From: a virus
Virus record (IMG/VR): IMGVR_UViG_3300049434_000028
Coordinates: 38,798-102,797 of that record
Length of the DNA stretch: 64,000 nucleotides
Strand: one strand, 5' to 3'
The notes below the pieces were generated by a model. The model saw nothing but the letters and a program-made list of their open reading frames with translations, made no database searches and had not been told where the DNA came from. The position numbers and the translations under genes are program-made. Below, one piece after another: positions 3,161 through 64,000 of this stretch; positions within the stretch are counted from its first letter, which is position 1, and the number at the start of each line of letters is the position of its first letter.

Positions 3161-3739
3161 TTACTTGATCGTCGGTGCGTCTGAGGTGTACGGGTCGGCC
3201 GCGTAGCTCGGCTTCCATCCCTCGTGCTGGATGACCATCTGTTCCATGAGGATGCCGTTGCCACCGGCATCGAGGTCGCTAAAGCTGATGCTGCCCGGCC
3301 AGGCGTTGTAGACCTTGAACCGCAGCTTCACCGGCACCTTGTTGTTCAGGGTGTACGGGTGGGCGAGCACCGAGATGTCGATGTTCGACCGGAAGTCCTT
3401 GCCCTTCTTGGGCGCGTACGAGCCACCGCCCTGGATGACCGAGAAGATCTCGCGCACCCACTCGTACGCATGCGGGGTGTTCACCATGACGCCGCGGGAC
3501 AGCGTGATCGGCGTGAACTCCGACTGCCCCGGCATCTTCTGGGGCGTCAGGTTGTAGCCACCCTGGCGATACGCGATGACCTGCGTCTCGACGTTCAGTC
3601 CGGCACAATTCATGAAGCCCAGCTCAATGAGCTTCCTGTTGCCACCGGCAGTGACGTGGTTGATGTTGACTATGAAGCGGAAGTTGCGCAGCGGATCGGT
3701 CGCGATCGAAGACCGCGAGTCCTTGACTGTCTCTGGCAT
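3161..3739 (-). CDS. Tail tube protein (T4 gp19-like)
   Basis: DPLRNFRF, GF..CAGL, YRQGG, KMPGQSEFTPITLSRG, YNAWP; start MPETV overlaps the sheath stop. Confidence 0.9.
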   Translation of the reverse strand: MPETVKDSRSSIATDPLRNFRFIVNINHVTAGGNRKLIELGFMNCAGLNVETQVIAYRQGGYNLTPQKMPGQSEFTPITLSRGVMVNTPHAYEWVREIFSVIQGGGSYAPKKGKDFRSNIDISVLAHPYTLNNKVPVKLRFKVYNAWPGSISFSDLDAGGNGILMEQMVIQHEGWKPSYAADPYTSDAPTIK

Positions 3740-5286
3740 TAGACCTCCTCGTTGACGGTGGAGCCGGACTCGAACTGACCGATCTTCAAGACGATGAACT
3801 CGGCGGGAGTCTCCAGAGCCACGCCGACCTCGATGTGCACCTCGCCGTTGTTCACAGCGTTCTGCGCGTTGGTGTCCTCGTCGCACTTGACGTAGAACGC
3901 CTCCTCCGCAGTAGTTCCACGAAGAGCGCCGTCCTGCCACAGCTCCAGCAGAACGCGCGAGCAGACATCCTCCAACGAAGCCCAAAGCTGCTCGTCGTTG
4001 GACTCGAACGCTGCGAATCGCGTGGCGTTGGTGAGCGCCATGCGCAGCGCGATCAGCGTGCGCCGAACGCTGACGTACTTGTCGATCTGATTGAGCTTTA
4101 GCGTGCGCGCACCAAAGATGCAGAGCCCGTTGCCGGGGACCGACTTGATGACGTTGACCTTGCCCATGTTGAGGGAGTCCATCTCAGACTCCAACGCCCG
4201 GTACTCTAGGGCCACGACGCCGTTGAGGCGGTTGTTGATCCCCGCCGGAGCCTTGTGCGTCCCGCGCTGGGTATCCGTGGCGACGTACTGCCCGACGACC
4301 GCGCCGCCAGGCGGGATGAGTCGCGTGCTGCCCGGCACCGTGTTGCTCGGGTCGCTGATCGCGAGCTGCGGGTAGTACACCGCTGCGTAGCTGCTGCTTG
4401 TGTACGCCGCCGCGGTGGTGATGAGCTGTGCAGGAGTCTGTGCAACGGCGCAGTCGACGACCAGGAAGCAGGTCCCGCGCGTCTCGCAGAAGGTGATCAT
4501 TGCGTTGACCGTGGCCGTGTCGACAACGCCGGGGATATTGATCGTGAGGAAGTCGTCCACGAGCGCCAGCGTGGCCGCCGCGTTGTACAGCTCGCTACCG
4601 GCTCCGACGGTCGGGGCCGCACCATCCGCACCGGAGGTGAGCACCTCACCGCCAGCCGGGGACACCGCGGGGACGATCGTGCCCGCAACGTAGGTGGCGG
4701 AACTCAGGTTGGTCAGCCTGATGTACACGCTACCGGTGGTGGGGGAGTTCAACAGCGCGGGCGCATACCGCCCATCGGTCGGGTCCATCGACAGGTCGGT
4801 CCAACGCTCAACGATGAACTGGTCGCCGGAGCCACCCAGACGCACCGTCAGATTGAACCGGCCGGGGAGGCTCGACCCCACGTCGGAGATCTCGGTGTAG
4901 ATCACGTTGCCCCAGGCACCAGGGTTCAGCGCATCGACCCGCAACAGCGGCGCCGGGGTGCCCGCACGGTCGTTGTAGGTGCGCGTCGCCACGACCGCAC
5001 CGGCACCGACTGCACGCACGATGTAGGCGGCTTGCCCGCCGTTGTTGTAGTACTGGAACACCGCGTGCGCCAGTGCCTGGTTGGCTCCGGCGAACCCGCC
5101 GTAGAGCTTCACGAACTGGCCCCACGAATTGATCAGCGTCGGCAGGCCGAGGATCGTGCCCGGCTGCACCGGTCCGCGGGTGGATACACCGACGAACGCG
5201 GCGACGGTGATCGCAGGGAAGGAATCGGGCGTGGTCTGGAGGAGGGACTCCTCCACATACACGCCTGGGCGCTTGTATGTCGCCAT
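3739..5286 (-). CDS. Tail sheath protein
   Basis: RPGVYVEE N-terminus, HKAPAG, FGARTL, YVSVRR, AFYVKCD, PAEFIV. Confidence 0.95.
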   Translation of the reverse strand: MATYKRPGVYVEESLLQTTPDSFPAITVAAFVGVSTRGPVQPGTILGLPTLINSWGQFVKLYGGFAGANQALAHAVFQYYNNGGQAAYIVRAVGAGAVVATRTYNDRAGTPAPLLRVDALNPGAWGNVIYTEISDVGSSLPGRFNLTVRLGGSGDQFIVERWTDLSMDPTDGRYAPALLNSPTTGSVYIRLTNLSSATYVAGTIVPAVSPAGGEVLTSGADGAAPTVGAGSELYNAAATLALVDDFLTINIPGVVDTATVNAMITFCETRGTCFLVVDCAVAQTPAQLITTAAAYTSSSYAAVYYPQLAISDPSNTVPGSTRLIPPGGAVVGQYVATDTQRGTHKAPAGINNRLNGVVALEYRALESEMDSLNMGKVNVIKSVPGNGLCIFGARTLKLNQIDKYVSVRRTLIALRMALTNATRFAAFESNDEQLWASLEDVCSRVLLELWQDGALRGTTAEEAFYVKCDEDTNAQNAVNNGEVHIEVGVALETPAEFIVLKIGQFESGSTVNEEV

Positions 5287-19930: not shown

Positions 19931-20917
19931 TCAGTTGGTCTCGCAGATCACGACGGAGTTGTCCGTAATCAGGCCAAATCCCCATATTGCATACCAGGCT
20001 AGGGCGTGCTCCCTGCCAAAATCGAGGATACCGCCATCTCTCAATTCGACAGGAAGCGAGATCGCGTGACCGAACGCATTGTCGCCCATGAAGATCGCCT
20101 GGTAGACATCGGACGCCGAGCCGCCAGCACCAACCAGCTTCTTGACCTGAGTGGTCTCGATGAAGACGACGTCCGCGATCCGGCCGATCTCGCCGAGCAT
20201 GAAGTTGCCGGGGGCCGCGTACTTCGTGACCTCGATGAACTCGGGGTCGTCACGCAGCTTGCGCGACTGGTGCGGGTGCACGAACGCGACGTAGGTCTCG
20301 CCGAGACGCGGGACATTCTTGGTCGCGAGGGTCTCCACGGCGTCCTTGATGGACGAGACGCGGAGCACGTACGCACCGGTCATCGCTGCACGGTTGGCAG
20401 CAACGGTGCCGTCGTCGTACGGCGAAGTCGGGGTGATCGCGCCGGTCGGGGGGAGGTAACCGAAGATGACCGACGTCGCCGTCAGGATCGTGTCGCGGGC
20501 CGAGCCGTCCAGGTACAGGGCCATGTTGCGGCCGAGCAGCCGGGAGGCCGACGCCATGACGTCGTCGAACGAAGCGTTGAGCAGCAGCTCGGAGACCGCG
20601 ATTGCATAGCCCTGCTCCGCGACGGTGATCTGATACTGCGACGCCGACAGCGCGTTGGTCTGCATGCGCACACCCTCAACGAGCTGCGAGGCAGCGCCGA
20701 GGTTGTTGTACCGCATGAAGTTGACCGTGAGACCGGGCTGCACGCCCAGCTCGGTCTTCTTGACCGCGAACTGCTCGAATCGCAGGATCGGCATGCTCTG
20801 GAACAAGATCTCCTTGCTCCAGATGCTCTGGATTGCCGCAGAGAGCTGCGCGTTCGCACCGGCATACGCGGTCGGACTCGCACTCAGGAACGGCGTACCG
20901 GTGATGGCTGATGCCAC
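19931..20917 (-). CDS. Major capsid protein (N4-gp56 family)
   Basis: WSKEILFQ..LRFEQFA, L.EGV, VHPHQ..LRDDPEF, GEIG, DFGRE. Confidence 0.92.
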   Translation of the reverse strand: MASAITGTPFLSASPTAYAGANAQLSAAIQSIWSKEILFQSMPILRFEQFAVKKTELGVQPGLTVNFMRYNNLGAASQLVEGVRMQTNALSASQYQITVAEQGYAIAVSELLLNASFDDVMASASRLLGRNMALYLDGSARDTILTATSVIFGYLPPTGAITPTSPYDDGTVAANRAAMTGAYVLRVSSIKDAVETLATKNVPRLGETYVAFVHPHQSRKLRDDPEFIEVTKYAAPGNFMLGEIGRIADVVFIETTQVKKLVGAGGSASDVYQAIFMGDNAFGHAISLPVELRDGGILDFGREHALAWYAIWGFGLITDNSVVICETN

Positions 20918-21934: not shown

Positions 21935-22648
21935 TTACTCGCCTGCCACGCGCCGGGTAGAGCGGCCAGTGATGGAGGTCTTCAACGCCGCTCGCCACTC
22001 GGGGTACTTCTCGCCGAACGTGGACTTCTCCCCCGCGGCGGTCCTGGTGATGACGTAGCCGCCTTTGGACATCCGGAACGGTTTCGAGCAGCGCTGCATG
22101 TAGTCCAGCATCGCGCCCTGATGCGCCTGCGGATCCCCCCAGGCCGGAGTGACGAAATTGCTGACCGTTACCGGCGTCGCTGCCGCAGTCCCATGGGTAA
22201 CGTTGATGACGTAGGAGTCGGACTCCACCGGGTCGCACACCTCAGCGGCGTAGAGCACGCCCGAGCCGTTGTCCCACCACCCATTGCACCGCGGGTCGAC
22301 GAACCATTCGAGCACCTCGTGCGAGAGCACGCTGGCCACCGAGAGGGTGTTGGTCAAGGCGTTGCCCCCGTTGTCCAGCACCGGCCCAGCGAAGACCCGG
22401 CCGTACTGCGTGCCGTCAGGATCCTCGGTGTGCCAGCCGAGCGCGCCTTCCTGGTCGCTGTCGTCGAACACGCCGAGCACCACCGCACTCGGCGGGATGT
22501 GCGCGGTATCGGGGTAGTAAATGACCGGGATCGGGAGCAGGCCCCACAACGGCGCGGCATGCAGGCGAAGCTGAGTCGCGCACGCACGAGTCATCGTTGC
22601 GACGTCGTTGTTGCTGACCCGAGTGGACTTGTTGACGATAGCCAACAC
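21935..22648 (-). CDS. Putative zincin-like protein (SHExxE..DP, EvcDP)
   Basis: GALGWH, VLSHEVLEWFVDP, EVCDPVE, VSNFV.P.W. Confidence 0.55.
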   Translation of the reverse strand: MLAIVNKSTRVSNNDVATMTRACATQLRLHAAPLWGLLPIPVIYYPDTAHIPPSAVVLGVFDDSDQEGALGWHTEDPDGTQYGRVFAGPVLDNGGNALTNTLSVASVLSHEVLEWFVDPRCNGWWDNGSGVLYAAEVCDPVESDSYVINVTHGTAAATPVTVSNFVTPAWGDPQAHQGAMLDYMQRCSKPFRMSKGGYVITRTAAGEKSTFGEKYPEWRAALKTSITGRSTRRVAGE

Positions 22649-22656
22649 GGCGAATC

Positions 22657-24369
22657 CTAATCGTTGTCGTCGTTAGCAGGGTTGCGCCGCTGCGAGAGCT
22701 TTGTGCCATAGGCGCGCGTGTTGAGCTGATTGACCATCTCGCCCACCTCAGGCGGGAGCGCAACCGGCTGGGTGACCGCCGGAGCCCCACCGCCTGCACC
22801 CCCGCCCGCGGTGCTGACACCAGCGCCGCCCGCACTGGTGACATCCGGCTGCGGCCCGTCCGGGCTGGGAAGCATGCCCGTCTCCGACAACACCGCTGCC
22901 GAGATCTGACTCTTCAACATATCGAGCGCGCCCTGGTCAATCGCGTCCTCGACCAACTCCAAGAAGATCTCCCGGCTCTTGTTATCGGGGAACTCCTCGC
23001 CCAGCTCGCGCAGCGCGCCGCGCTTGGACTCCAGACCGAGCGCCATCTTCATCTGCACCTCGTTGAGCTTGATGAGGATGTCGACGGGCAGCGGCGGCGG
23101 CCAGTGGCATTCGGTCTGGTAGGTGACCGGGTCGTCCGGGTCCAGTACCGGGAGCTGACCATCCTTCAGTTCGTCGCTCTCGCTGGGATCCCACTGGAAC
23201 GTGAGCGGTTCCTTGACGGCCAGCGTGCGCAGGATCAGCTCGTTGACGCGTCGGATGCCCTGCCCGTAGTTCGTCGTCTTCTGCCGGTAGCGCTGCATCA
23301 TCGGCGTGTACTGGATCGCCAGCGCGACGCCGGAGGTGTTGCTGATCGGCTGCACGTCGCCGAGCGCACCCTCGGGAACACCGGTCAACTCGTGCATGCT
23401 CTTCTTCAGCATCGCGAGGTAGTCCATGGGGCCGCCGAGGTTCGCGCCCAGCTCCAGGTTGAATACCTGCGCGTCCTTCGGCAGTCCGCCCCAAACCTTC
23501 TTGGGGCCCTTCTCCAACTGCGACGCCTTCGCTCCGGTGATCACCGTCACGGGCGCAGCGTGGTAGTTGATGATGTCCGAGACGTCGGTGGCCTTCTCGT
23601 TGTACTCGCGGTTCAGCGAGATGATGCCGCCGATGTCCGAGAGCCCCCACGGCGAGCCGGAGACCTTGGTGTTGGGGATGTGCACGACGGGGATGACGCC
23701 CAGCGGGTTCGGGCGCGCATCGAGCAGCTCGTCGTTGATGTACTCCTCGATCTGAGTGTCCGTCAGGATCTCGGTATAGGTGAAAACCTGACGCGTACCG
23801 TCCGCCGTCGTGCCCCAGAACTTGTACTTGAGCTTGAAGCGCAGGAGTCGGTTGCGGTCATGCGGATGGAACTCGGGGAAGGCATGCGCGCCGTTGATCG
23901 GAAGGACACGCACGCGACCGGCGTGGAACCCACCGGCCGGGTCCACCCACGGCTCCTCGTACGCGACCTTGATGAAGCAGTCGCCGGAGACACCACCGAG
24001 CTGGCCCAGCTCCAGCAGCAGCGACTCCTTGTCGTTGTCGACCTCCCACACGCGCGAGAGCAACGACGGCACGATCGCCGACGTCGCGAGCGGCGTGCGG
24101 AAGTAGACCCCGCGGCCGAAGCAGAAGTTGTTGATGAACGACGCGAAAGCCTCGACGTAGTTGAACGTGAGCTGGGGCTCGCCCATCTCCCGCCGATGAC
24201 TCCAGTGATGACCGAGGAACCAGGCCCAGTTCTGCGCGTACCGGTTGAGCCGCGGGCCGTGTACCTCGAACTCCTCATCGGCCAGCTCTACCAGGCCGAG
24301 CGGAGAGATCGAGACCGTGAGGTCACCGGAGGACGCACGGAAGGACGGCGAGACGAAGTCGACGCTCAC
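22657..24369 (-). CDS. Portal protein
   Basis: IPVVHIPN..G.SDI..I..LN.EYN; SNTSGVAL; size and position. Confidence 0.9.
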   Translation of the reverse strand: MSVDFVSPSFRASSGDLTVSISPLGLVELADEEFEVHGPRLNRYAQNWAWFLGHHWSHRREMGEPQLTFNYVEAFASFINNFCFGRGVYFRTPLATSAIVPSLLSRVWEVDNDKESLLLELGQLGGVSGDCFIKVAYEEPWVDPAGGFHAGRVRVLPINGAHAFPEFHPHDRNRLLRFKLKYKFWGTTADGTRQVFTYTEILTDTQIEEYINDELLDARPNPLGVIPVVHIPNTKVSGSPWGLSDIGGIISLNREYNEKATDVSDIINYHAAPVTVITGAKASQLEKGPKKVWGGLPKDAQVFNLELGANLGGPMDYLAMLKKSMHELTGVPEGALGDVQPISNTSGVALAIQYTPMMQRYRQKTTNYGQGIRRVNELILRTLAVKEPLTFQWDPSESDELKDGQLPVLDPDDPVTYQTECHWPPPLPVDILIKLNEVQMKMALGLESKRGALRELGEEFPDNKSREIFLELVEDAIDQGALDMLKSQISAAVLSETGMLPSPDGPQPDVTSAGGAGVSTAGGGAGGGAPAVTQPVALPPEVGEMVNQLNTRAYGTKLSQRRNPANDDND

Positions 24370-24372
24370 GAG

Positions 24373-24762
24373 CTAGCTCCACTGCCCCTGAACGCCGCCG
24401 CGCTTGCCGAACTGCAGCCGGTGGAACACGTCAGGGTCGTGCGTGCCGTCGGCCTTGATCGGGTGCAGGTCCATGTAGGCGGTGTTGTCCACGCTCGGGG
24501 TGTGAAACGACTCCTCGCCCCCGCGGGTGAGCACACCGTCGTGGGCGACCTGCAGCTTGATCGCGGTCTGACGGAAGTTGTACCCGCTGTCCCGACGCTG
24601 CACGAACGCCTCCCGCGCGGCCTTGCGGCTGGGGAAGTGCTCCAGGTCGTCGTGCGACGGCTCGGCGTAGCTGCTCCCGCCGTGCCAGCGCGCGGCGTAG
24701 CCCTTGGTCACCTTTGCCTCGGCAGGCGTCGGAGCGCGGCGGTCATTGAACAACTGCGGCAT
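24373..24762 (-). CDS. Hypothetical protein (N-terminal FNDRR)
   Basis: RBS; W.GGSSY motif. Confidence 0.55.
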   Translation of the reverse strand: MPQLFNDRRAPTPAEAKVTKGYAARWHGGSSYAEPSHDDLEHFPSRKAAREAFVQRRDSGYNFRQTAIKLQVAHDGVLTRGGEESFHTPSVDNTAYMDLHPIKADGTHDPDVFHRLQFGKRGGVQGQWS

Positions 24763-24764
24763 GG

Positions 24765-24977
24765 TCAGCCCCTTCCGTACATCTTCAGCGTGCGCGGGGT
24801 GAGCTTGGCAAGTTCCTCGCGCGGCCGGTCGTAGTTGGCCTTGCCGCAGTCCATGCAGTACGGCTCTCCACCGTCCCGCGAGATGTGCGTGGCGGGCTTG
24901 GCGCAGTAGTCGCAGGTCATCTCCTGCGGGCCAGCGGGAGCGGCAGTACGCGAGACGCGGCGATCGTTGAACTCCAT
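24765..24977 (-). CDS. Small Zn-finger protein (N-terminal FNDRR)
   Basis: CDYC..YCMDC. Confidence 0.55.
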   Translation of the reverse strand: MEFNDRRVSRTAAPAGPQEMTCDYCAKPATHISRDGGEPYCMDCGKANYDRPREELAKLTPRTLKMYGRG

Positions 24978-24984
24978 ACGAGAG

Positions 24985-25356
24985 CTACCTCTTCGCCTTC
25001 TGGATCTTGCCCCTGGCCGAGGCCTTGAGCTGCTTGATGTCGATCGCGGTGACGTTCAACGACCGGCCGACGTCGGCAGTCCCCCAGTGCATGGAGTGGT
25101 AGCCCGCCTGGCCGTACTTGACGCCGAGCGCGTGCTGGTACTGCGCCAGCGCCATGCCGGTGTCCGGTGCGGGGAGCGAGCTGCCGGTCTTGGAGTCCCA
25201 GATGTGCGGCGTCCGGTCCGGGCCGACGACGTGCCACTTGTTCGGGCCACCGCCCGGCGCCCAGAGCTGGCCCTGCGTGCCGTCATGCAGCGGCACCATG
25301 TCTCCGGCCTTGGGCGCCGCGCGACCCTGGCCCTCGGAGAACGCCTGGTTGCGCAT
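24985..25356 (-). CDS. Hypothetical protein
   Basis: Coupled ORF. Confidence 0.55.
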   Translation of the reverse strand: MRNQAFSEGQGRAAPKAGDMVPLHDGTQGQLWAPGGGPNKWHVVGPDRTPHIWDSKTGSSLPAPDTGMALAQYQHALGVKYGQAGYHSMHWGTADVGRSLNVTAIDIKQLKASARGKIQKAKR

Positions 25357-25754
25357 CAGTCGACGACGAGCGCGGGGTTCACCCGGCTGTACCGGCCGCC
25401 GGAGCGGTCCGCCATGACGTACTCGATCTGGTTGCCCTCGCCCGCGCCGGACGCGTAGTCCGAGAGGTACTGCGGGCTCTCGACCCAGGCCGCCGAACCG
25501 ACGTGGGCGCGCTCGGCCATCGTCTCATTGGCGTGCTTGTACTGGGTGTCGGGGTTAACGCTGCTCGTCGTCCCCGGTGCCGGGCTCGTGGCCTCCATCA
25601 TCCCGCGCTGGAAGTCGTTGGGGACGTCCGTGTCGGTCGCGATGCCCTCCTCGAACCGCAGCGGGCCGCGCAGGCCGGGCTGGCCGAGGGCCATCTTGCG
25701 CTCGTACGTGTAGGGAGCGACCTCCGGGAATCCGGGGTTCGGTGCGATGCCCAT
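25356..25754 (-). CDS. Probable virion protein
   Basis: GPLRFEEGIATDTDVPNDF..ERAHVGSAAW; AGGAG RBS. Confidence 0.6.
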   Translation of the reverse strand: MGIAPNPGFPEVAPYTYERKMALGQPGLRGPLRFEEGIATDTDVPNDFQRGMMEATSPAPGTTSSVNPDTQYKHANETMAERAHVGSAAWVESPQYLSDYASGAGEGNQIEYVMADRSGGRYSRVNPALVVD

Positions 25755-26095: not shown

Positions 26096-26854
26096 TTAGA
26101 GCATCTTCGCGCCGGGGAACTGGCTGGAATGGAACTCCCGCGCCTGCGCCAGCGCACCGGAGTGGAACGCGGCGGTACGGCGACCAACGAGAGGCGTGAT
26201 CGGCTGCGCCAGGTGTGCGGGTAGCAAAGCCACCTTCTGCGCCTGGAAGTTGCCCCCGCCGCCCGCGCTGATGAACGCGCTGTTCTGCCCGCGGGTCTCG
26301 GTGGCCATGGCACGGCGCGCGGTCGGGGAGTACATGCTGCTGTGCATCTGGAACGCCGCCTCCTCGCCGTGGCGGTCGAACCCGCGGCCGGTGCCGCCGT
26401 GGCCGAAGGCGTCGTGCACGGCGCGGAACTGGTCGTTCTGCAGGTTGGAGAAGTACGGGTGGCTGCCGCTGGCGGCCGTGGAGTAGACCTCCAGGTGCTT
26501 GTTCTCGTGCAGGTCGCGCATCATGTCGGCCGGGCCCTTGTAGGGGTCCTTCGTGCTGACATCCACCTGCACGCCGAGCCCACCGCGCCGGACCGGCTTG
26601 GTGAGGTGGTCGAACTGCTTCTCGGTCTCGTGCGCCATCGCCTTGAAGTGGGGGACTGCCCGCTCGTCGAAGTCCGGCAGCGCCCCGTACGCCTGCGCAG
26701 CGGCCTTAGTGACGTCCGGGTGCGCGACGACGGAGCGGAAGGTGCTCACGTCCGGCCGAGCCAACCCCTGGCGCGCGGCGTAGTCGCGAGCGCCCATGGC
26801 GATGTGCGGGTTGACCTGCCCGGCCCCGCCGAAGAAATGTGCGGTGCGGCTCAC
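26096..26854 (-). CDS. HDxxGH putative metal-binding domain of the type seen in phage polyvalent proteins
   Basis: NDQFRAVHDAFGH..F.RHGEEAA..H..MYS..AR.AMATETRGQNS. Confidence 0.6.
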   Translation of the reverse strand: MSRTAHFFGGAGQVNPHIAMGARDYAARQGLARPDVSTFRSVVAHPDVTKAAAQAYGALPDFDERAVPHFKAMAHETEKQFDHLTKPVRRGGLGVQVDVSTKDPYKGPADMMRDLHENKHLEVYSTAASGSHPYFSNLQNDQFRAVHDAFGHGGTGRGFDRHGEEAAFQMHSSMYSPTARRAMATETRGQNSAFISAGGGGNFQAQKVALLPAHLAQPITPLVGRRTAAFHSGALAQAREFHSSQFPGAKML

Positions 26855-27765
26855 TGAACGACTCCTGACGGGAAGTGGTTGAAGCGCGGACTCGTAGAGG
26901 CCGATCTCTGCAGCCCACGCTGAGCCAGGAATCTCTCCCCGCCACGCTCCTTGCGCCGCTGCGCCTCCTCGTGACCAGGGACCTGCCGCTCCAGGTGATC
27001 GGGTGCGTCGTTGGCGTAACTCCAGTGGTGCTCGCCATTCCCGCTCGCGAAGCGCGCCAGCAGCTCCGTCTGCTGCCCCTGCGCCGGGGTAGACCGCCGG
27101 TCCCGCCAGTTCGAGTGCTCTGGTGCTCCTGCTGCGCGCATCGTCCTGAACGTCCGACGGAAGTCGTTGCTGGCTGCGGGCGACTCCTCCTTCCCGGCCC
27201 ACCCTTCCGGCCCACGGTCGATCTGCACCGGCTTGACGCGCCGATCACGGAAGTGAGTCTCCGCGTAATTCTCGGCAAAGCCCTCTTCAGCCCCTCGCGT
27301 GGTCGGCGTGTTGTAGGCCGAGTGCTCGCTCTGGTCGATACGTGCGCTGACGTGGTGCCCGATCTCATGGATCGTCGTCGTGCTCGCAGCCCTGCCAGGC
27401 GCGATGCGCATCAACCCGAGCGCCCGACCCTGCTTCTGGTAGTCGCCCGAACGGCCATCGCCCACTGCGGTAACGGCCGAGTCGTGGTAGTTGGCGTAGA
27501 GCCCATCGAGATGCGATGCAGGAACGGTGCTCCGCGCGATCGTCTCCACTCCCCTGCGCGCTTCCTCACTGATAGCCCCACGGCCGGATGGCCATCCGCT
27601 CGTCGGGCCGGTGACCTCGTCACGTCGCTGCGGGGAGTACCCCCGAGGCCAGGGCTTCCCGGTGGCCGGAGTCGGGTTGCCTCCCTGGAACAACGTCCCC
27701 TGACTGTTCGCAGACGCTTTCATGTTCGTGTGCATGCGAAACTGAGCACCCGTCAGCGCAACCAT
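26851..27765 (-). CDS. HExxH metallopeptidase, paralog C
   Basis: TTTIHEIGHHVS..EEGFAENYAE. Confidence 0.7.
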   Translation of the reverse strand: MVALTGAQFRMHTNMKASANSQGTLFQGGNPTPATGKPWPRGYSPQRRDEVTGPTSGWPSGRGAISEEARRGVETIARSTVPASHLDGLYANYHDSAVTAVGDGRSGDYQKQGRALGLMRIAPGRAASTTTIHEIGHHVSARIDQSEHSAYNTPTTRGAEEGFAENYAETHFRDRRVKPVQIDRGPEGWAGKEESPAASNDFRRTFRTMRAAGAPEHSNWRDRRSTPAQGQQTELLARFASGNGEHHWSYANDAPDHLERQVPGHEEAQRRKERGGERFLAQRGLQRSASTSPRFNHFPSGVVQ

Positions 27766-28736
27766 CAGCCGAATCCCTGCTCGTGCTCTTCGTGATAAAG
27801 CGAGCGCCACTCCCGACGCTTGGGGGTGTTCCCATCCTCGTGCCACTCGGTGGTGTCCTGAGCGAGCATCGGAATCTGGCCGCGCATCCCGGTGGGGTGC
27901 AGATCCTGCTGGTCGATCTTCGCCAGCGAAGCCTTGTGCGCGAGCGATGACGGCGAGTGTTCGGCCTGGTGCCCGTAGAACCCGCGGTGGAACGCACGCC
28001 GAGGGTCGTCATCCGAGAAGGTGTAAGGCTTCTCAGGCCCCGGCATCCCGTAGTGCCCGTGCCACTTCTCAGGCGAGGTGGAGAAGTTCGTCAGAGGACG
28101 CCCGCGGTGATCCCGGTAGTGAGTCTCGGCGTAGGACTCGGCGAACGACTCCTCCTGCCCAGACGCCTCAAGGTCGTCGTGATCGCGCAACGTCTTTGAA
28201 TGCGGCGTACCGAGCAGATTGCTTACGTGGTGCCCTACCTCATGAATCGTCGTGGTGCCATCAGCGTGACTGGCGCGTACGGTGATCGAAGGGCTCCACG
28301 CACCGCTGCCGGACTTGTAGTGCCCGGCCGTGTTCTTGCTGATCTGGTTGTCCTGAATCTGGAAGTAGTAGCTCGCACCACGTATGTGGTCGGTAGGAAC
28401 AGTGCTGCGCGCGAGATTGGCCACTGCCTTAGAGGTACCCTCGCGGCCGGTGCGCTCCTCCTCCGGGTACGTCTTGAAATCACGAGCAGCAGCAACCTGC
28501 GCGCTGGGCTTGCCCTTGTTCCCGCCCAGATAGGAACGGACCGTAACGCCGGAAGTCTTGTCACCCGAATCCATGGCGTCGACAACCGCATCACGGCGCT
28601 CCGGGCTGTACCCGCGCGGCCACGGCTGCCCGGCTCCGGCGCGAGGATGCCCGCCCTGGAACAGCGTGCCCTGGGAGTTGGGGGCGGCCTTGATGTTCGT
28701 CTGCATCCGCCACTGCTTGCCAACCAGATCAGCCAT
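27765..28736 (-). CDS. HExxH metallopeptidase, paralog B
   Basis: TTTIHEVGHHVS..EESFAESYAE. Confidence 0.7.
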   Translation of the reverse strand: MADLVGKQWRMQTNIKAAPNSQGTLFQGGHPRAGAGQPWPRGYSPERRDAVVDAMDSGDKTSGVTVRSYLGGNKGKPSAQVAAARDFKTYPEEERTGREGTSKAVANLARSTVPTDHIRGASYYFQIQDNQISKNTAGHYKSGSGAWSPSITVRASHADGTTTIHEVGHHVSNLLGTPHSKTLRDHDDLEASGQEESFAESYAETHYRDHRGRPLTNFSTSPEKWHGHYGMPGPEKPYTFSDDDPRRAFHRGFYGHQAEHSPSSLAHKASLAKIDQQDLHPTGMRGQIPMLAQDTTEWHEDGNTPKRREWRSLYHEEHEQGFG

Positions 28737-29541
28737 CGCCAAGCCTCCGCGCCAGACCGCCCTGCGCGACTGCCTTGGTCGACTTGCGCCCACGCAGCTC
28801 CAGCCCTACGTCGAACAGCGCGGGCTGCGCGCCCCGAGCGGCGTACGACGCGGAGGCCTTGGCCTGGCGTTCGGCGCTCGGCGAACCCACACGCTCCTTC
28901 TCGAAGTTCTTCGCGAACGTCTTGCTGGCGGCGTCGCCCATGTTGTTGGACCAGCGCAGCGGGTTGGTGGAGAAGTCGGGGCTCGGCCGCCCGCGGCGAT
29001 CCCGCCAGTTGCGCTCGGCGAAGTTCTCAGCGAAGCCCTCATCCGCGCCCTTGCGCGCCACGGTGTTGTACTCCGAGGAGGCGCGGCCGGTGATCCGGCT
29101 GACGTGGTGGCCGATCTCGTGGATGGGGGTCGTGGTGCCCTCCTGGCCAGGTGCGACCGTGACGCGCGAGAACGGGTGCTCCGTCCAGGTGGCCTGGTCC
29201 ATCCGGCGGCCGTGCTGGTACATGCCGCCGATCTGCAGCCCCGCGGCCATCCCGCGCTTGCGGCCCATGCCGGTGTCGGCGGGCTTGAACTCCAGGTCCG
29301 TCAGCCGGTTCGCCGGAGCCGTGCTGCGAGCGACGTTCTCGATGATCGCGCGCGTCTGCGGAGAGTCGCGCATTGCTGCACGCGTGCTCGGGTGAATCGA
29401 GTTGAGCACGTCGCGCTGGCGCTCGGGCGTGTACCCGCGCGGGTAACGCTGCGCGTTGTTGCCCTGGAAGAGCGTCCCCTGGCTGTTCGGGGCCGCCTTC
29501 ATGTTGGTCTGCATGCGGAACTGCTGCCCGTTCAGCGTCAT
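28729..29541 (-). CDS. HExxH metallopeptidase, paralog A
   Basis: TTPIHEIGHHVS..DEGFAENFAE. Confidence 0.7.
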   Translation of the reverse strand: MTLNGQQFRMQTNMKAAPNSQGTLFQGNNAQRYPRGYTPERQRDVLNSIHPSTRAAMRDSPQTRAIIENVARSTAPANRLTDLEFKPADTGMGRKRGMAAGLQIGGMYQHGRRMDQATWTEHPFSRVTVAPGQEGTTTPIHEIGHHVSRITGRASSEYNTVARKGADEGFAENFAERNWRDRRGRPSPDFSTNPLRWSNNMGDAASKTFAKNFEKERVGSPSAERQAKASASYAARGAQPALFDVGLELRGRKSTKAVAQGGLARRLGDG

Positions 29542-31112
29542 CGCGCGCTCCGCTGGTAGAACGGCGAGTGGGTCTGCTCCACCTCGGCCATGGTCCAGTC
29601 TTTCGTGAGGTAACAGCCGATCGCGAGAGAGTCCGGGTAGTCGTCGTGGGCCTCGGCCTCCTCTGGCGCGGCGGCCAGCAGGAACTTCCCCTGGTACTTC
29701 TTCTCCAAGTCCTTCATCTGGCCCTCGAACCGGCGCCAGGTGCGCAGACGGCGGGTCTTGGCGTGCCCCGGCCAGGACACCATCCCGCGACCGATCAGCT
29801 CCGAAAGGTGCTTCCAGCGCGCCGACTGCTCGGAGCTGGACGAGCCCATCGCCACTACCTCCAGCTCGGGCATGAGGCGCGCCAGGCGGTCCGCCACGAC
29901 GTCACCGATGCCCTGCGCGTCGATGCCGAGCTTCACACCGCTGTACGCGCGGCAGAAGTCGACGATCTTGCCGTACTGCTCCTCCCACTGGTCTCCGTGG
30001 ATCTCCAGCCAGTTCAGGACGCGGTGGTCGTAGTAGCCGAACTCATCCGGCCGCGACCAATCCACCCAGATCGCGGTGAGCACCGTGGAGTCCAGCTTGC
30101 GCGCGACGTCGAGACCGAACACGATCGGCGTGCCGTGGTAGCTCTTGACTATCTCCATCGACTTATCTGACAGTTCGTCAATTCGTTCCTCTGTCGTGAA
30201 CATGCCTCGATCGAGCAGCCACTTCAGGCAGTACGACATCTGGAACTCGTCGCTGTCCGCGCCGATGCGCGCCATCTCCTTGCGCACGAACTTCTCGTAG
30301 TTGGCGTTGTACTTGGCGCAGATCTTCCAGTCGTTCTGGAAATGACACTGCCTCGCGCCCCTGCGCGTCTGGCGTCGCTGGTTGTGCCGGATCGCCTTGT
30401 AGAAGTCCCCCTTGTGGATGTCGGGGGTGCCGGTCTTGACGATCGTGGCGTTGTAGTACGCGCCCATGGGGTGGATGCTCTTGCGAACCGTGCGCTCGTC
30501 GGCCTTCTGCGCCTCGTCGATGACGATCAGGTGGTAACTCTTCGACTCGATCGACGCCTTGGGGTTGGCGGTCTGCATACGTGCGAACGAGCCGGACTTC
30601 TTCAGCTTGATGAGCTTGCCGCCGCCCTGCACCGCGTCGTCGATCTCAGGGTCGGCCAGCATCTCCAGAGCACGATCGCTGGTCAGCCGGTTCACAATGC
30701 GCCCGTATAGCGTCTCGGCCTGGCTCTCGACGGGTGCGAACGTCCCAACCCAGAACCCGTCCACGAACTTGCCCAGCCAGATCGGGAAGATGCGCGCCAG
30801 CTTCGGCAGCAGGATCATCAGGGCCGCGACTACGTTCGCGATCGTCTCAGTCTTGCCGCTCTGGCGCGAGAACAGCGCCGTCAGCTCCTCGCCGTCGTTG
30901 ATGACGACGCTCTCGATGCACCGGTAGGCGAACTCGCGCTGGTACGGGTGCAAGGCGTGCCCGGCCAGCTCGTCCACGAAGATCAGAATCTTGGTGACGA
31001 GCTGATGGACGAAGTCCGAGTCCTCCTCGGACAGCTCTACGACGTCCTCGTCAAGAGGCACCCCCTCGTCGTCCAGAAGAGGTGCCTCGACGTCATCGAG
31101 CAGAGTGGTCAT
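29538..31112 (-). CDS. terL: Terminase large subunit
   Basis: LHPYQ, SRQSGKT (Walker A), LIVIDEAQ (Walker B), TGTP, GLDVAR..DST, HDDYPDS. Confidence 0.95.
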   Translation of the reverse strand: MTTLLDDVEAPLLDDEGVPLDEDVVELSEEDSDFVHQLVTKILIFVDELAGHALHPYQREFAYRCIESVVINDGEELTALFSRQSGKTETIANVVAALMILLPKLARIFPIWLGKFVDGFWVGTFAPVESQAETLYGRIVNRLTSDRALEMLADPEIDDAVQGGGKLIKLKKSGSFARMQTANPKASIESKSYHLIVIDEAQKADERTVRKSIHPMGAYYNATIVKTGTPDIHKGDFYKAIRHNQRRQTRRGARQCHFQNDWKICAKYNANYEKFVRKEMARIGADSDEFQMSYCLKWLLDRGMFTTEERIDELSDKSMEIVKSYHGTPIVFGLDVARKLDSTVLTAIWVDWSRPDEFGYYDHRVLNWLEIHGDQWEEQYGKIVDFCRAYSGVKLGIDAQGIGDVVADRLARLMPELEVVAMGSSSSEQSARWKHLSELIGRGMVSWPGHAKTRRLRTWRRFEGQMKDLEKKYQGKFLLAAAPEEAEAHDDYPDSLAIGCYLTKDWTMAEVEQTHSPFYQRSAR

Positions 31113-35271: not shown

Positions 35272-35889
35272 TTAGCTTCCTGCTACCCGCTCGTAGCGGA
35301 ACTCGCCCTTGATGTTCCGGTCGATGAACCTACCTGGGCTGCGCACCTGCTTGATGCGGTACCAGATCGAGCCAGGAACCGAGAAGTAGTCGTACGTTCC
35401 GCCATCCCTGTAGACGATCCTCAACACGCGCGTCTGGCGGTTGTAGGTCATCTCGCGCGTGCGCGGGCGAGGCGGGTTAATCGAGCGCGTCGGCGAGTAG
35501 TACTCCGTCGCCGTCGGGAGCTGCGCGGTCTGTTCCGTGTCGTCCTCGTCATCGCCCCAGAGCCCGAGCTGCACCATCTCCGGCTCGGAGATCCGCTCGA
35601 TGACGCCCTCGGCGAAGGCGTCCCCCGGAGATCCCTGACCGAAGTCGTCCTGGGTCGCCGGAGTCGAGTTCGTGTCAGTGAAGACGTCCTGCGCCAGCGG
35701 CGCGCGGCCGACGCGAGAACGGTCCGAGCGCGCCTGCTGAGCGGCATTGCGCCGTAGCTGCTCCTCGTACTGCTTCGCGAGCTTGTTGGCCAGGCGCTGG
35801 CCCTGCGTTGCGCCGCGGGATACCGAGCGGCTGGACTTGACCGACGGCGTCAGCGGCTTGCGCGGCCTACGCGGCTTGTTGACCGGCAA
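35272..35889 (-). CDS. KTSC-domain protein
   Basis: Y....LRIVYRDG.TY.Y..VP..W..SPGRFI..NIKG.F.Y. Confidence 0.8.
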   Translation of the reverse strand: MPVNKPRRPRKPLTPSVKSSRSVSRGATQGQRLANKLAKQYEEQLRRNAAQQARSDRSRVGRAPLAQDVFTDTNSTPATQDDFGQGSPGDAFAEGVIERISEPEMVQLGLWGDDEDDTEQTAQLPTATEYYSPTRSINPPRPRTREMTYNRQTRVLRIVYRDGGTYDYFSVPGSIWYRIKQVRSPGRFIDRNIKGEFRYERVAGS

Positions 35890-49884: not shown

Positions 49885-51357
49885 TTACTCGGCCTTGCCC
49901 TGGATGACACGGCCGAGCACGCGGTCGGTGTCCTGCGGGCCTAGCTGCGTGGCGATGGGATTGGCCAGGTCGGCCGCCTTCTCGCCGAACAGCCGGGACA
50001 ACACGCCGCTCTTGCCCTTGGCCTCCACCGACATGCGGAAGAACTCGCGATCGTCCTCCAGCTCGGCCTGCACCTGGAACGTCTTGAGCAGCCGATCGAA
50101 CTCCTGGCTGGTGTTCGGGTCGGCGTAGCCGCCGGACAGCTCCTCGCGAAAGCGCATGAACGCCAGCCGCTGGGCTTGCATCTCGACCATGCCGTTCATC
50201 AACGCCTTGCGCTGGCTGGCCGTGCGCACCTCGATCGGCAGGTCATAGGAGCAGCTCGTGTCCTCCTTGAACGCCGGGCACTCCGCACGCACGAAGCAGG
50301 TGTTGCAGACGCGCTGCGGGGTGCTGGAGACGACCGGCAGCGAGGTGCGCACCATCTGGTTGGAGCCGGAGTCGATGGCCTCCTCGTGCGTGAATCCGAA
50401 CACCGGCAGAGTGCGCATCTCTGCTGCGTCACGCATGCGCAGGGCAACTGGTTCTTTCCGTGCCCCTTCCGACAACTGGGCAACTGCTGCACCAGGACCC
50501 TCTAGCGCCTGGCCAACCTCCTGCGCACCACGACGGGTTACCCGCTCACCATTCATGCTCGCCTCGTACTGCAGCCAGCTCCAGACGCTCACACGCACGA
50601 CCTCGCGAGGATCGTCATCGTTGATCTTCGCCACATCGAAGCCAGCGCGCTCGAAGTCGTTGCGGTGGCGCATGCGCGCCTGGTCCTTCATCTTCATGGG
50701 GTAACGGACGAGCCGCGCGCCGTCCCAGATGATCGTCTCGCCGAAGCGCATAGGGCTCAGCCAGGACGTGCTGCTGGCCGAGCTGAAGCGAACGTGGCGG
50801 ATGGCGTCCGGCCGGGACATGGCCAGCCCGTGCAGCTTGACGCCGCTGTTCGCCAGCTTGTTCAGGTGCGGGGTGATGTTGAGCCCTGGCATGGCGATGT
50901 TGGCCTGCGCGATGCCGACGCGCTTGTAGCGCTCGGCCAGGGCCTCCAGCGCCGTCGCGCCCTGCTCGGGGTGCCACACCGGCAGGAACTGGTCCGGGTC
51001 GATGTGGTCCCACACGTCGCGGCGCATGGCCTCGATGTAGCCCTGTCCGAGCGCCAGGCAGTCGAACTCGCTGACGATGTCGATCTCGTGGATGTGCTCC
51101 TGGGCGAAGTCGGCGTACCCGCGGCCGTACTCCCGCCACTCGCCCTGGGTCAGCTTCCCCGCGTCTTTGTTTGCGGTGAACCCGCCGCTGTCCAGGAAGA
51201 CGCTAGAGAAGCCCCAGTCCATGCTGTAGGCCTTCTTCTTCGGCAGCCGCTTACGCACGGCGTAGTAGCTCAGCCCCACGTTCTCGACGCCCATGTCGCG
51301 CAGCAATGACCGCCACGCCGCTTGTTCGGCGCCGAGGTAGTAGAGGTGGAAGCTCAC
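49885..51357 (-). CDS. tRNA-guanine transglycosylase (TGT/DpdA)-like TIM barrel fused to a Cys4 and helical C-terminal domain
   Basis: FLDSGGF, EFD, FLPVWH, KLHGLA, SASSTSW..RFG; CNTC..CP..C. Confidence 0.7.
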   Translation of the reverse strand: MSFHLYYLGAEQAAWRSLLRDMGVENVGLSYYAVRKRLPKKKAYSMDWGFSSVFLDSGGFTANKDAGKLTQGEWREYGRGYADFAQEHIHEIDIVSEFDCLALGQGYIEAMRRDVWDHIDPDQFLPVWHPEQGATALEALAERYKRVGIAQANIAMPGLNITPHLNKLANSGVKLHGLAMSRPDAIRHVRFSSASSTSWLSPMRFGETIIWDGARLVRYPMKMKDQARMRHRNDFERAGFDVAKINDDDPREVVRVSVWSWLQYEASMNGERVTRRGAQEVGQALEGPGAAVAQLSEGARKEPVALRMRDAAEMRTLPVFGFTHEEAIDSGSNQMVRTSLPVVSSTPQRVCNTCFVRAECPAFKEDTSCSYDLPIEVRTASQRKALMNGMVEMQAQRLAFMRFREELSGGYADPNTSQEFDRLLKTFQVQAELEDDREFFRMSVEAKGKSGVLSRLFGEKAADLANPIATQLGPQDTDRVLGRVIQGKAE

Positions 51358-51395
51358 GTCGTGCCCCTTGTCCTGGCCCAATGGTGCAGCCCAGG

Positions 51396-51755
51396 CTAAC
51401 CGTGCATGGGGTCGGACGCTGGTAGGCCACAGCCGGATCGGAATCCGTCGGCCGCCGTGAACAGGTGCCCGCAGCCCCCCGCCCTGTGCCACCCTGCCTT
51501 GCTCGGTACGAACTCGTGCGTCGTCGGCCGCTGCTTCAGCTCGGCCAGTAGTACCTGCGCGAGCGCGGCCACGAGCATCTCCTGCATGCCATTGAAGTCG
51601 GTCGGATTCACCATCGTGGACACCACCTGCCGTGCGGTGTTGATCACCACGGACCGGTGCACGATCTGCCGTGCGGTGTTGATCGCGTGGTAGACCTCGG
51701 CGTTGGTCATGTACAGCAACGACGCCTTGGCCACCAGCTCGTCATCGGTGGTCAT
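51396..51755 (-). CDS. Protein with C-terminal HCCH module
   Basis: THEF..C..CGLPASDPMH. Confidence 0.55.
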   Translation of the reverse strand: MTTDDELVAKASLLYMTNAEVYHAINTARQIVHRSVVINTARQVVSTMVNPTDFNGMQEMLVAALAQVLLAELKQRPTTHEFVPSKAGWHRAGGCGHLFTAADGFRSGCGLPASDPMHG

Positions 51756-62849: not shown

Positions 62850-63101
62850 CTACATCCAGGACGTGGCGGGACGCGAGGTGCCGGAGTAGCCGGGCTCCGC
62901 GTAACCACTCACACGCCCGCGGGCGTCCGGGTAGAGCCGGTTGGTGCCGAGCACGTCCATGATGGTCGGCACCATCGACGGGTTGCCGAGCCGCGGTGGG
63001 AACAGCACCGCCTGGCGCACGGGTGGGAACGGGTAGTCAGGCAGCGGGAGCGGCGGGAACCCCGTCGCGCCACCGCGCTTGTAGACGCTGTCGGATTCCA
63101 T
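62850..63101 (-). CDS. Pro-rich small protein
   Basis: Coupled to the upstream gene. Confidence 0.5.
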   Translation of the reverse strand: MESDSVYKRGGATGFPPLPLPDYPFPPVRQAVLFPPRLGNPSMVPTIMDVLGTNRLYPDARGRVSGYAEPGYSGTSRPATSWM

Positions 63102-64000
63102 CAGGCTCCGGCCCGACGTCGGATAGGCGCGCCCTTACCGAGCGGCAGACTGAACTGGGTGGCATTGAGATTGGTGTTGGTCCGCTTGCTCTCCTTGGCG
63201 GATGCCGCCAGTGCCTGGCTGTGCTCAGGATCCTTCCCCGCCTCAATGCGCCCCTGCGTCCACGCAACCTCCTGGACGGCCACGGCGGGGATCTTGTACC
63301 CAAGGTCGTGCTGGCCGGACACTCTCTTCGCCGCGCGAATGGTCGCCTCGTTGTTGTAGGCGTGCTGCAGGGCGACCACACCGACGCGCGAATCCGGGTG
63401 GATCCGATTGCCACGCCCGCCCGTGGTCTCCACCGAGGCCAGCGGACCTACCGTCTTGGCGACGTTGGCACGATCGACGGTGGTCAGCGGCTGGCCGGTG
63501 GTGAAGGCCTGCTGCCAGGTGTCCTCGGTGGTGGGGCCCTTGGACGCGAGCAGCCCACTCTCGCTGTGCCGCATTCCGACCAGGTCAAGGACGCCCTGAC
63601 CCTCATGCTGTAGGCCCCTGGCCACGTCGGCGTGGTGGCCGACGCGGGTCATGTACTCGGTGTGCTCGGCGCTGCCAGGAACGGCGCGCAGGATGTTGCC
63701 GCGGTAGGAGTGCACCTTTGGGCTGTCGTACGGACTGATGGCGGTAGCAGTGGGCTGCGTGCCGCGAAGCACGTTGATCGCCTTGGAGATGTTCTCCTTG
63801 GGCCCGCCCTTGGTGATCCCCAGGAAGTCGATCCCGCTGTGCACAACGTGCGGCGAGATGTTGGTGGTCGAAAGGTGCGCCAGATGCTCGGGAGCCAAGT
63901 CGGCGACCTTGACCTTCTTATCGTTACCGACCTGATGGGCAGGCACCGCAATACCGGACGCCTTGGATACCGCCCTCGCGACAGCCGGGCTCATCGTGAC
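63101..64000 (-). CDS. 5'-truncated protein with KVxSYxxNI..D.W..QxxAW domain (DUF7178/HhH-like)
   Basis: PKVHSYRGNI, TEDTW, AVQEVAW; frame open to the window edge; C-terminal NLNATQFSLPL. Confidence 0.55.
   Translation of the reverse strand, partial: VTMSPAVARAVSKASGIAVPAHQVGNDKKVKVADLAPEHLAHLSTTNISPHVVHSGIDFLGITKGGPKENISKAINVLRGTQPTATAISPYDSPKVHSYRGNILRAVPGSAEHTEYMTRVGHHADVARGLQHEGQGVLDLVGMRHSESGLLASKGPTTEDTWQQAFTTGQPLTTVDRANVAKTVGPLASVETTGGRGNRIHPDSRVGVVALQHAYNNEATIRAAKRVSGQHDLGYKIPAVAVQEVAWTQGRIEAGKDPEHSQALAASAKESKRTNTNLNATQFSLPLGKGAPIRRRAGA

Follow-up and report, generated by a model that had tools for sequence, protein, structure and literature searches.

Why would three adjacent peptidase genes of a bacteriophage carry the same five-residue tag near their N-termini, and to what would that tag bind? 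The question is raised by the window analysed here, a 64,000-nucleotide stretch (bases 38798-102797) of the complete 102,797-bp IMG/VR virus record IMGVR_UViG_3300049434_000028, in which three minus-strand paralogs of a putative zinc peptidase all carry the sequence QGTLF. An earlier note on this DNA had read QGTLF, together with similar peptides in other proteins of the phage, as a motif that recruits its bearers to the sliding clamp (DnaN) of the host. Based on homolog comparison, structure prediction and a modelled complex, we give a probability of about 0.7 to the reading that the paralogs are gluzincin peptidases docked on the host DnaN by their QGTLF tails, many members of the family having a second motif in the C-terminal tail. 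The phage would thereby probably place proteases on the replication ring of its host.

A family of stand-alone zinc peptidases

The three genes and their zinc-site motifs are as follows.

28729-29541, minus strand: paralog C (P0003), 270 amino acids; its start ATG overlaps the stop codon of the terminase large subunit (TerL) gene (ATGA)
27765-28736, minus strand: paralog B (P0002), 323 amino acids, zinc-site motif HEVGHH; its first 8 nt coincide with the end of paralog C
26851-27765, minus strand: paralog A (P0001), 304 amino acids, with HEIGHH; its start and the stop of paralog B overlap by 1 nt (TGATG)
29104-29121, minus strand: HEIGHH zinc-site motif of paralog C
28227-28244, minus strand: zinc-site motif of paralog B, equivalent to HEIGHH of paralog C
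27352-27369, minus strand: zinc-site motif of paralog A, equivalent to HEIGHH of paralog C

The paralogs are 40-42% identical to one another in pairwise comparison and have HE[IV]GHH in common. Across 111 family sequences, H141, E142 and H145 (paralog C numbering) are invariant, as are E168 and A171 on the next helix; E168 is the putative further zinc ligand. In an AlphaFold2 (AF2) model of paralog C built from the 111-sequence alignment (mean predicted local distance difference test score, pLDDT, 85.4), the active-site residues fall on helices 138-150 and 161-178 of a globular body (residues 31-235, pLDDT 92-98) that lies between flexible N- and C-tails. The closest structural neighbours of the body are thermolysin (Z 7.7, root-mean-square deviation 4.5 A, 163 residues aligned), LasB (7.0), PPEP-3 (6.7) and anthrax lethal factor (6.3); 26 chains reached Z >= 5 and all those listed are zincin peptidases, the Z values being moderate. 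Judged by these residues and the predicted fold, the paralogs are stand-alone gluzincin-type peptidases (HExxH plus a downstream Glu) of an undescribed phage-borne family, with predicted activity.

Neither the paralogs nor any of the 111 members gave a Pfam or PHROG match at threshold, or a sequence match in the PDB. A Foldseek search with the peptidase model returned nothing significant in the PDB and weak zincin matches only in BFVD, and the ESM Atlas gave sub-threshold leads only. Among 5.8 billion proteins, 109 homologs were found, all of them from metagenomes or viromes and none named, and in 185,579 species genomes the family was recognized at a single locus, in Terracoccus sp. 273MFTsu3.1.

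The N-terminal QGTLF tag

Translation of the minus strand bears out the three copies of QGTLF that the earlier note had reported.

29467-29481, minus strand: QGTLF in the N-tail of paralog C (residues 21-25)
28659-28673, minus strand: QGTLF in the N-tail of paralog B (residues 22-26)
27688-27702, minus strand: QGTLF in the N-tail of paralog A (residues 22-26)

In all three paralogs the tag lies within an invariant N-terminal block, G.Q.RM.TN.KA..NSQGTLFQG. The Ser, Gly and Leu codons within this block differ between the paralogs, so that the block has been kept by selection on the protein; gene conversion as its source is ruled out by the same differences. The three copies of QGTLF are one evolutionary event.

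The 111 family sequences are 24-69% identical to paralog C. All of them have L24, and Q21, G22, T23 and F25 are each at least 90% conserved, which equals the conservation of the HExxH site; the tag is retained down to 24-30% overall identity. Of 100 members, with identities down to 27%, that were anchored on the sequence P[RK]GYTPER, 98 had QGTLF, one had QGSLF and one QGTLL, in each case 8-15 residues upstream of the body; more distant IMG/VR relatives have QGKLF or QGKFF. The expectation that Q, L and F would be kept in homologs thus holds, in the 111 sequences as in the 100 anchored members. One member (P0031) has the tag twice in its tail. Searches with residues 1-40 for the tag on other bodies gave nothing among longer proteins and only close orthologs among proteins of similar length, and a literature search on the QGTLF peptide gave irrelevant matches only.

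Residues 1-30 of paralog C have a pLDDT of about 60 and no secondary structure in the AF2 model; the tag lies in a flexible tail and is not buried in the fold. The block might instead act in cis, either as a propeptide or substrate mimic in the active-site cleft or as a site of self-cleavage or of cleavage by a prohead protease, in which case its likeness to a clamp motif would be coincidental. Such a role would fit the conservation of the G and T of the motif and of its flanks, which exceeds the demands of clamp binding, and the tail pLDDT, which falls short of full disorder; zincin peptidases of phage polyvalent proteins have also been proposed to autoprocess (PMC5512222). However, the tail shows no confident packing, the duplicated tag of P0031 is more readily explained by multivalent docking than by one latency plug, and, as described in the following two sections, the same motif occurs as the last five residues of proteins, where it cannot be a useful cleavage site, and on a family that is not a protease. 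An action in cis therefore seems improbable to us.

Some distant members have neither the tag nor the PRGYTPER block (locus L008, 7284-8620; L010, 314-1600; L011, 7527-8880 and 4948-5985) and have long N-terminal extensions instead. Several phages have one tagged and one untagged copy, or two copies far apart. A 123-amino-acid protein encoded between the TerL and portal genes (24985-25356, minus strand) has TQGQLWAPGG at residues 27-36, which resembles the SQGTLFQGG of the peptidases; this TQGQLW is the one extra match to the pattern QG.[LFM][FW], against 0.5 expected.

Second motifs in the C-terminal tails

Two of the paralogs have a further candidate motif behind the body.

28813-28827, minus strand: QPALF in the C-tail of paralog C (residues 239-243), a candidate second clamp-binding motif
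27058-27072, minus strand: QTELL, a peptide of the QxxLL type at residues 232-236 in the C-tail of paralog A; as a second motif it is a weaker candidate

QPALF had been picked out before as a second peptidase motif, and its pattern is kept in orthologs, which retain Q, L and F while the middle varies (QEALF, QTALF, QGGLF, QEPLF, QDTLF and QGQLF); in two orthologs of paralog C the site holds the hexamer-like QEQLPL or QLSLEL. The last ~30 residues of the paralog C model have a pLDDT of 52-54, and the block 231-240 averages 82. Over the C-tails of the family, which total 10,268 residues, the strict form Qxx[LM]F was found 21 times; 500 shuffles gave an expectation of 1.0 and a maximum of 5. A looser form was found 36 times against 3.7 expected, whereas the globular bodies contain none in 17,182 residues. 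In five family members the motif forms the extreme C-terminus, and its spelling and position differ between subgroups. QTELL is also present in the orthologs P0019, P0021 and P0022; in PolI of Mycobacterium tuberculosis, QLSLL is the experimentally shown core of clamp binding.

The motif on an unrelated glycosylase-like family

A protein unrelated to the peptidases carries a hexameric form.

63101-64000, minus strand: C-terminal part of a glycosylase-like protein of ~470 amino acids, the open reading frame (ORF) of which runs over the end of the circular record
63140-63157, minus strand: QFSLPL, 12 residues from the C-terminus of this protein

The position of QFSLPL near the C-terminus, as claimed previously, is correct, and the tails of homologs support the motif. 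When 1.84 billion cluster representatives (50% clustering or less) were searched exhaustively with HMMER, 148 relatives of the 63101 protein were retrieved. Among 119 full-length representatives, 40 have Qxx[LM]F at the very end and 51 within the last 13 residues; shuffling of the last 60 residues gave an expectation of 0.18 (maximum 3 in 500). In the tails the motif occurs 8.7 times per 1000 residues, in the bodies 0.06 times, a difference of about 145-fold. Its spellings include QGTLF (6), QGKLF (4), QGSLF (4), QLSLF (3), QLGLF (2) and also QLDLF, and at position 2 Gly is the commonest residue (21 of 62), with Leu in 10; the homolog in L005 ends in QGKLF. Because QG[TKS]LF alternates here with QLSLF, QLDLF and QLGLF, QGTLF is one of several exchangeable forms that the classical clamp-binding pentamer takes among these phages.

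The model of a family member (P0113) has a pLDDT of 95.8 and a flexible end of ~18 residues. Its top 19 fold matches all belong to the HhH-GPD superfamily, with Z values that are not decisive for helical proteins: Qng1/DUF2419 (Z 8.8, 237 residues aligned), the Tm1821 8-oxoG glycosylase (7.8) and EndoIII/MagIII (6.8). Neither Foldseek against the PDB nor Pfam gave a match for the family. A helical two-domain fold like that of HhH-GPD DNA glycosylases, as suggested by these matches, would make the 63101 family a plausible client of the clamp.

The same phage encodes a TGT/DpdA-like protein (49885-51492) alongside the 63101 protein, which resembles Qng1 of queuine salvage, and relatives of the peptidases adjoin a TGT-like gene in L005, L008, L010 and L011. 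This pattern of genes hints at a link between the putatively clamp-tethered enzymes and 7-deazaguanine modification of DNA. Directly downstream of the glycosylase-like gene, an 83-amino-acid gene product (62850-63101, minus strand) has QAVLF at residues 30-34, within a proline-rich N-terminal region.

Chance level of the motif

Patterns as short as these occur by chance. In the proteome of the phage (~29,900 predicted residues), QxxLF is found 5 times against 2.3 expected, QxxLW 3 times against 1.3 and QxxLxL 7 times against 6.1, so that QPALF, QLGLW and QFSLPL taken alone are not above chance in this proteome. These near-expected counts are what would be seen if all the motifs were functionless matches to a pattern of low information, and one further motif behaves in just this way.

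35557-35571, minus strand: QLGLW in the KTSC protein

The earlier note had located QLGLW correctly, but its interpretation as a clamp motif was dropped: QLGLW(G), which resembles the motif of mycobacterial ImuB, is missing from the homologs in phage GiJojo (gp58), L008 and L011. For the other motifs the homologs point the opposite way. QGTLF is near-invariant in more than 100 sequences, the enrichment in the 63101-family tails has no counterpart in its bodies or in those of the peptidases, and two unrelated families are concerned. At the level of sequence, the homolog analyses thus refute chance for QGTLF, QPALF and QFSLPL, although it still stands for QLGLW; as an account of the whole set we consider it scarcely credible.

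Modelled docking on DnaN

A complex of residues 1-36 of paralog C with DnaN of Streptomyces coelicolor, used as a stand-in for the clamp of the host, was predicted with ESMFold2. It scored 0.76, and the best of three controls 0.03. In calibration, 58 of 80 solved complexes and 2 of 110 mismatched pairs reached the mark for such scores; these counts hold only roughly here, as our own alignment was used. The runs of the complex share at least 86% of their contacts, with a partner pLDDT of at least 62. Residues 14-26 of the tail are placed against DnaN residues 169-174, 245-250, 320-322, 346-348 and 368-376, that is, domains II and III and the C-terminus; in the model L24 lies against 169-174, 348, 368 and 370, and Q21 against 322 and 370-373. 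These contacts match the canonical pocket as described for the M. tuberculosis clamp. Complex prediction with an actinobacterial DnaN, a check proposed in the earlier note, places the peptide in this pocket, which shows its likeness to known motifs and not that this copy binds.

No domain of the DnaN, PCNA or gp45 type was found in the six frames of the complete 102.8-kb genome, and the ring of the host is therefore the only known partner. The phage does encode a family-A (Pol I-type) DNA polymerase, a DnaB-like helicase, a primase and a UvsX-like recombinase, none of which has a terminal clamp motif, and it may manage its own replication without the host ring.

Taken together, the features expected of clamp-binding peptides are largely present. 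The three copies of QGTLF, QPALF and QFSLPL fit the pentamer pattern Qxx[LM][FL] or the hexamer pattern Qxx[LM]x[FL]; the segments are exposed and flexible in the N-tail of paralog C, in the tail of P0113 and at the ends of the 40 63101-family proteins that terminate in the motif; and in the C-tails of the orthologs of paralog C, as in the 63101 family, Q, L and F are conserved and the middle positions variable, the N-tail being fixed at all five positions. Docking on the clamp through QGTLF, QPALF and QFSLPL is well supported by these sequence comparisons. The proposal of clamp recruitment is accordingly supported in so far as it concerns conserved, flexible tails that recur on unrelated families and that the model places in the DnaN pocket, and finds no support for QLGLW of the KTSC protein.

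Several points weigh against this reading. The published consensus of the clamp motif (Q-phi-x-[LM]-[FL]) is aliphatic at position 2, and QGTLF has Gly and QPALF Pro at this position. G22, T23 and the flanks (TN.K.KPGS and GG) are kept more strictly than clamp binding needs, so that an additional or different partner could be involved, although the predicted interface of residues 14-26 may explain part of the strict conservation of the N-tail. About two thirds of the family members have no recognisable second motif, and the motif counts in the tails are inflated by shared ancestry and are not phylogenetically independent. Since many clamp-peptide complexes have been solved, the success of the model may reflect likeness alone, and any exposed QxxLF might dock in the same way. 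Finally, the modelled clamp is a stand-in, the host having been deduced from 73% capsid identity only.

Genome context and a possible partner in the phage head

The window includes the following head genes.

29538-31112, minus strand: terminase large subunit, TerL (phrog_2, E-value 7e-25), directly upstream of the peptidase triplet
22657-24369, minus strand: portal
19931-20917, minus strand: major capsid protein

On the minus strand the order is TerL, the three HExxH paralogs, a phrog_3170 protein, several small genes, portal and capsid. From TerL through paralogs C and B to paralog A, successive genes overlap by 4, 8 and 1 nt, and the four genes are thus probably translationally coupled. The terminal repeat of the record is 127 bp only, which indicates an overlap of a circular assembly, and the GC content is ~65%. 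The capsid protein is 73% identical to that of the Streptomyces myophages GiJojo, BRock, pSt2308, LuckySocke and Alone3, which makes Streptomyces or a closely related actinobacterium the probable host, as judged from capsid identity alone.

This setting suggests another address for the tag, namely a partner encoded by the phage itself: a head component (portal, scaffold or capsid interior) that packages the peptidases as injected cargo, or an unrecognised hub. The triplet is found in the TerL-portal interval and is coupled to TerL; a relative stands directly before or after the portal gene in L007, L009, L012, L014 and L015; capsids are 73-77% identical across the phage group, and a head partner so conserved could explain an invariant tag; and there are weak structural matches to 'minor capsid', MuF and polyvalent-protein models. 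Other loci are hard to reconcile with a head partner, since tagged relatives are also found outside head modules, beside lysis and TGT/DpdA-like genes (L005 and L010), and the tagged chromosomal relative in Terracoccus has no capsid genes nearby. The motif itself, moreover, is of a class that occurs at either terminus and shows the degeneracy of clamp-binding motifs, alternating with QLSLF, QLDLF and QLGLF on the glycosylase-like family, and no clamp-like gene was found in the phage. Placement at either end, this alternation and the terminal position are explained neither by a packaging tag nor by a cleavage site. We regard a phage-encoded partner as unlikely, if less so than an action in cis.

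The Terracoccus relative (L018, NZ_KB911820.1, 4731-6762), tagged AQGTLF, is the only chromosomal homolog among the 185,579 species genomes. An SNase-domain ORF and a 282-amino-acid ORF without a family directly precede it, a tRNA-like sequence adjoins, and the locus may be a small integrated remnant.

None of GiJojo, BRock, pSt2308, LuckySocke and Alone3 has the peptidase family, their TerL-portal interval containing small hypothetical genes only; the triplet thus sits in a variable slot. An essential prohead protease was considered and rejected, because these close relatives lack the family and the present phage has three copies. Searches of 50,697 phage records by tblastn and megablast gave no match for the paralogs, for their relative P0064, for the 123-amino-acid neighbour (24985-25356) or for the 63101 protein.

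Comparison with known systems

The nearest precedent is MuC of phage Mu, which binds the host DnaN by means of two motifs, QHDLF (N-terminal) and QPDLF (C-terminal); each is required, and each is non-aliphatic at position 2 (His and Pro; PMC12867686). Paralog C has the same two-ended layout, with QGTLF and QPALF. MuC differs in being a small transcription factor (a late activator of the Mor/MuC family) with experimentally demonstrated binding, whereas the present proteins are zinc peptidases of a phage with an actinobacterial host and their binding is predicted. Established clients of the beta clamp (Pol II, III, IV and V, Hda and M. tuberculosis PolI) likewise have a pentamer or hexamer on a flexible terminal segment, often at the extreme C-terminus, in which Q, L and F are kept and the middle varies, and the docking modelled here is in the same pocket between domains II and III. 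These clients are polymerases and regulators of repair or replication, with no peptidase among them, and the Gly at position 2 of QGTLF departs from their aliphatic consensus.

The earlier note had likened the peptidases to SprT/SPRTN. SPRTN and Wss1 are HExxH metalloproteases that act on DNA-protein crosslinks and are brought to a replication clamp by a short linear motif (the PIP box, for PCNA), and the concept carries over. Membership of that family does not: a SprT-like match (PF10263) was found in only one of the 111 members, with an E-value of 0.11, and in fold comparison SPRTN (6mdx, Z 5.0) and Wss1 (Z 4.7) rank below thermolysin (7.7), the bodies looking more like gluzincins of the thermolysin, PPEP or lethal factor type. 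The comparison is a functional analogy, and not one of family membership.

In structure the paralogs are of the same kind as the zincin domains of phage and plasmid polyvalent proteins, which have HExxH and a Glu on the next helix, are related to lethal factor (Iyer et al. 2017, PMC5512222), often occur in several copies in phages and have been proposed to be effectors or processing enzymes on entry (PMC5512222). Those are domains of giant proteins, whereas the paralogs are stand-alone and have no Pfam match at threshold. Clamps are mentioned zero times in that paper (PMC5512222).

Proposed mechanism and significance

If the clamp-docking reading is correct, the tails would insert into the hydrophobic pocket of DnaN between domains II and III. 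With two pockets per ring, both tails of one enzyme could be bound, and the enzyme would be held on clamps loaded on DNA, where a peptidase with intact catalytic residues could cut a protein bound to the clamp or to DNA. Each of the three diverged bodies would probably have a specificity of its own. The protein cut might be the clamp, a host protein of the replisome, of repair or of defence that rides on it, or a protein left on phage DNA before packaging; the effects might be a shutdown of the host replisome, the disarming of clamp-associated repair or defence factors, or the clearing of phage DNA ahead of the terminase. A phage that has no clamp and supplies a Pol I-type polymerase, a helicase and a primase of its own could afford this. 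We would propose tentatively, and at less than even odds, that the family is a clamp-tethered protease family that cuts the clamp or its riders and is the bacterial-virus counterpart, by analogy, of PCNA-bound SPRTN.

Polymerases, repair enzymes and a few regulators are known to use the bacterial clamp as a toolbelt. We know of no SPRTN-like protease coupled to the clamp in bacteria, and a literature search turned up no peptidase among the described clients of this clamp, whether from bacteria or from their viruses. If the reading holds, proteolysis would join the activities organised on the ring, a new route by which phages take over or clean up replicating DNA would be suggested, and a testable bacterial-side analogue of SPRTN would be at hand. 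The sequence comparison has a use of its own: QG[TKS]LF is the preferred spelling of the clamp motif in these actinobacterial phages, which should help to recognise further clients. The DnaN pocket is an antibiotic target in actinobacteria, and natural ligands of high conservation for this pocket would therefore be of practical interest.

Other genes at the locus

Between TerL and portal, a 132-amino-acid protein (25356-25754, minus strand) is the sole gene kept in all related phage loci, with 47-52% identity in L007, L009, L014, L015 and GiJojo, while the surrounding genes vary. Two adjoining small genes just upstream of the portal gene (24373-24762 and 24765-24977, minus strand) encode proteins that begin with MPQLFNDRR and MEFNDRR, respectively, and have FNDRR in common; the divergent peptidase relatives P0037 and P0078 have TPQLF in their tails, which may be compared with the MPQLFNDRR terminus. 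Between portal and scaffold lies a 237-amino-acid protein without a family (21935-22648, minus strand), and the same slot is occupied by a QGKLF-tagged peptidase in L009, L012, L014 and L015. Elsewhere in the genome, outside the window, the record encodes a WhiB-like domain fused to an exonuclease (3597-5282 of the record) and a tyrosine-integrase-like protein (23797-24759).

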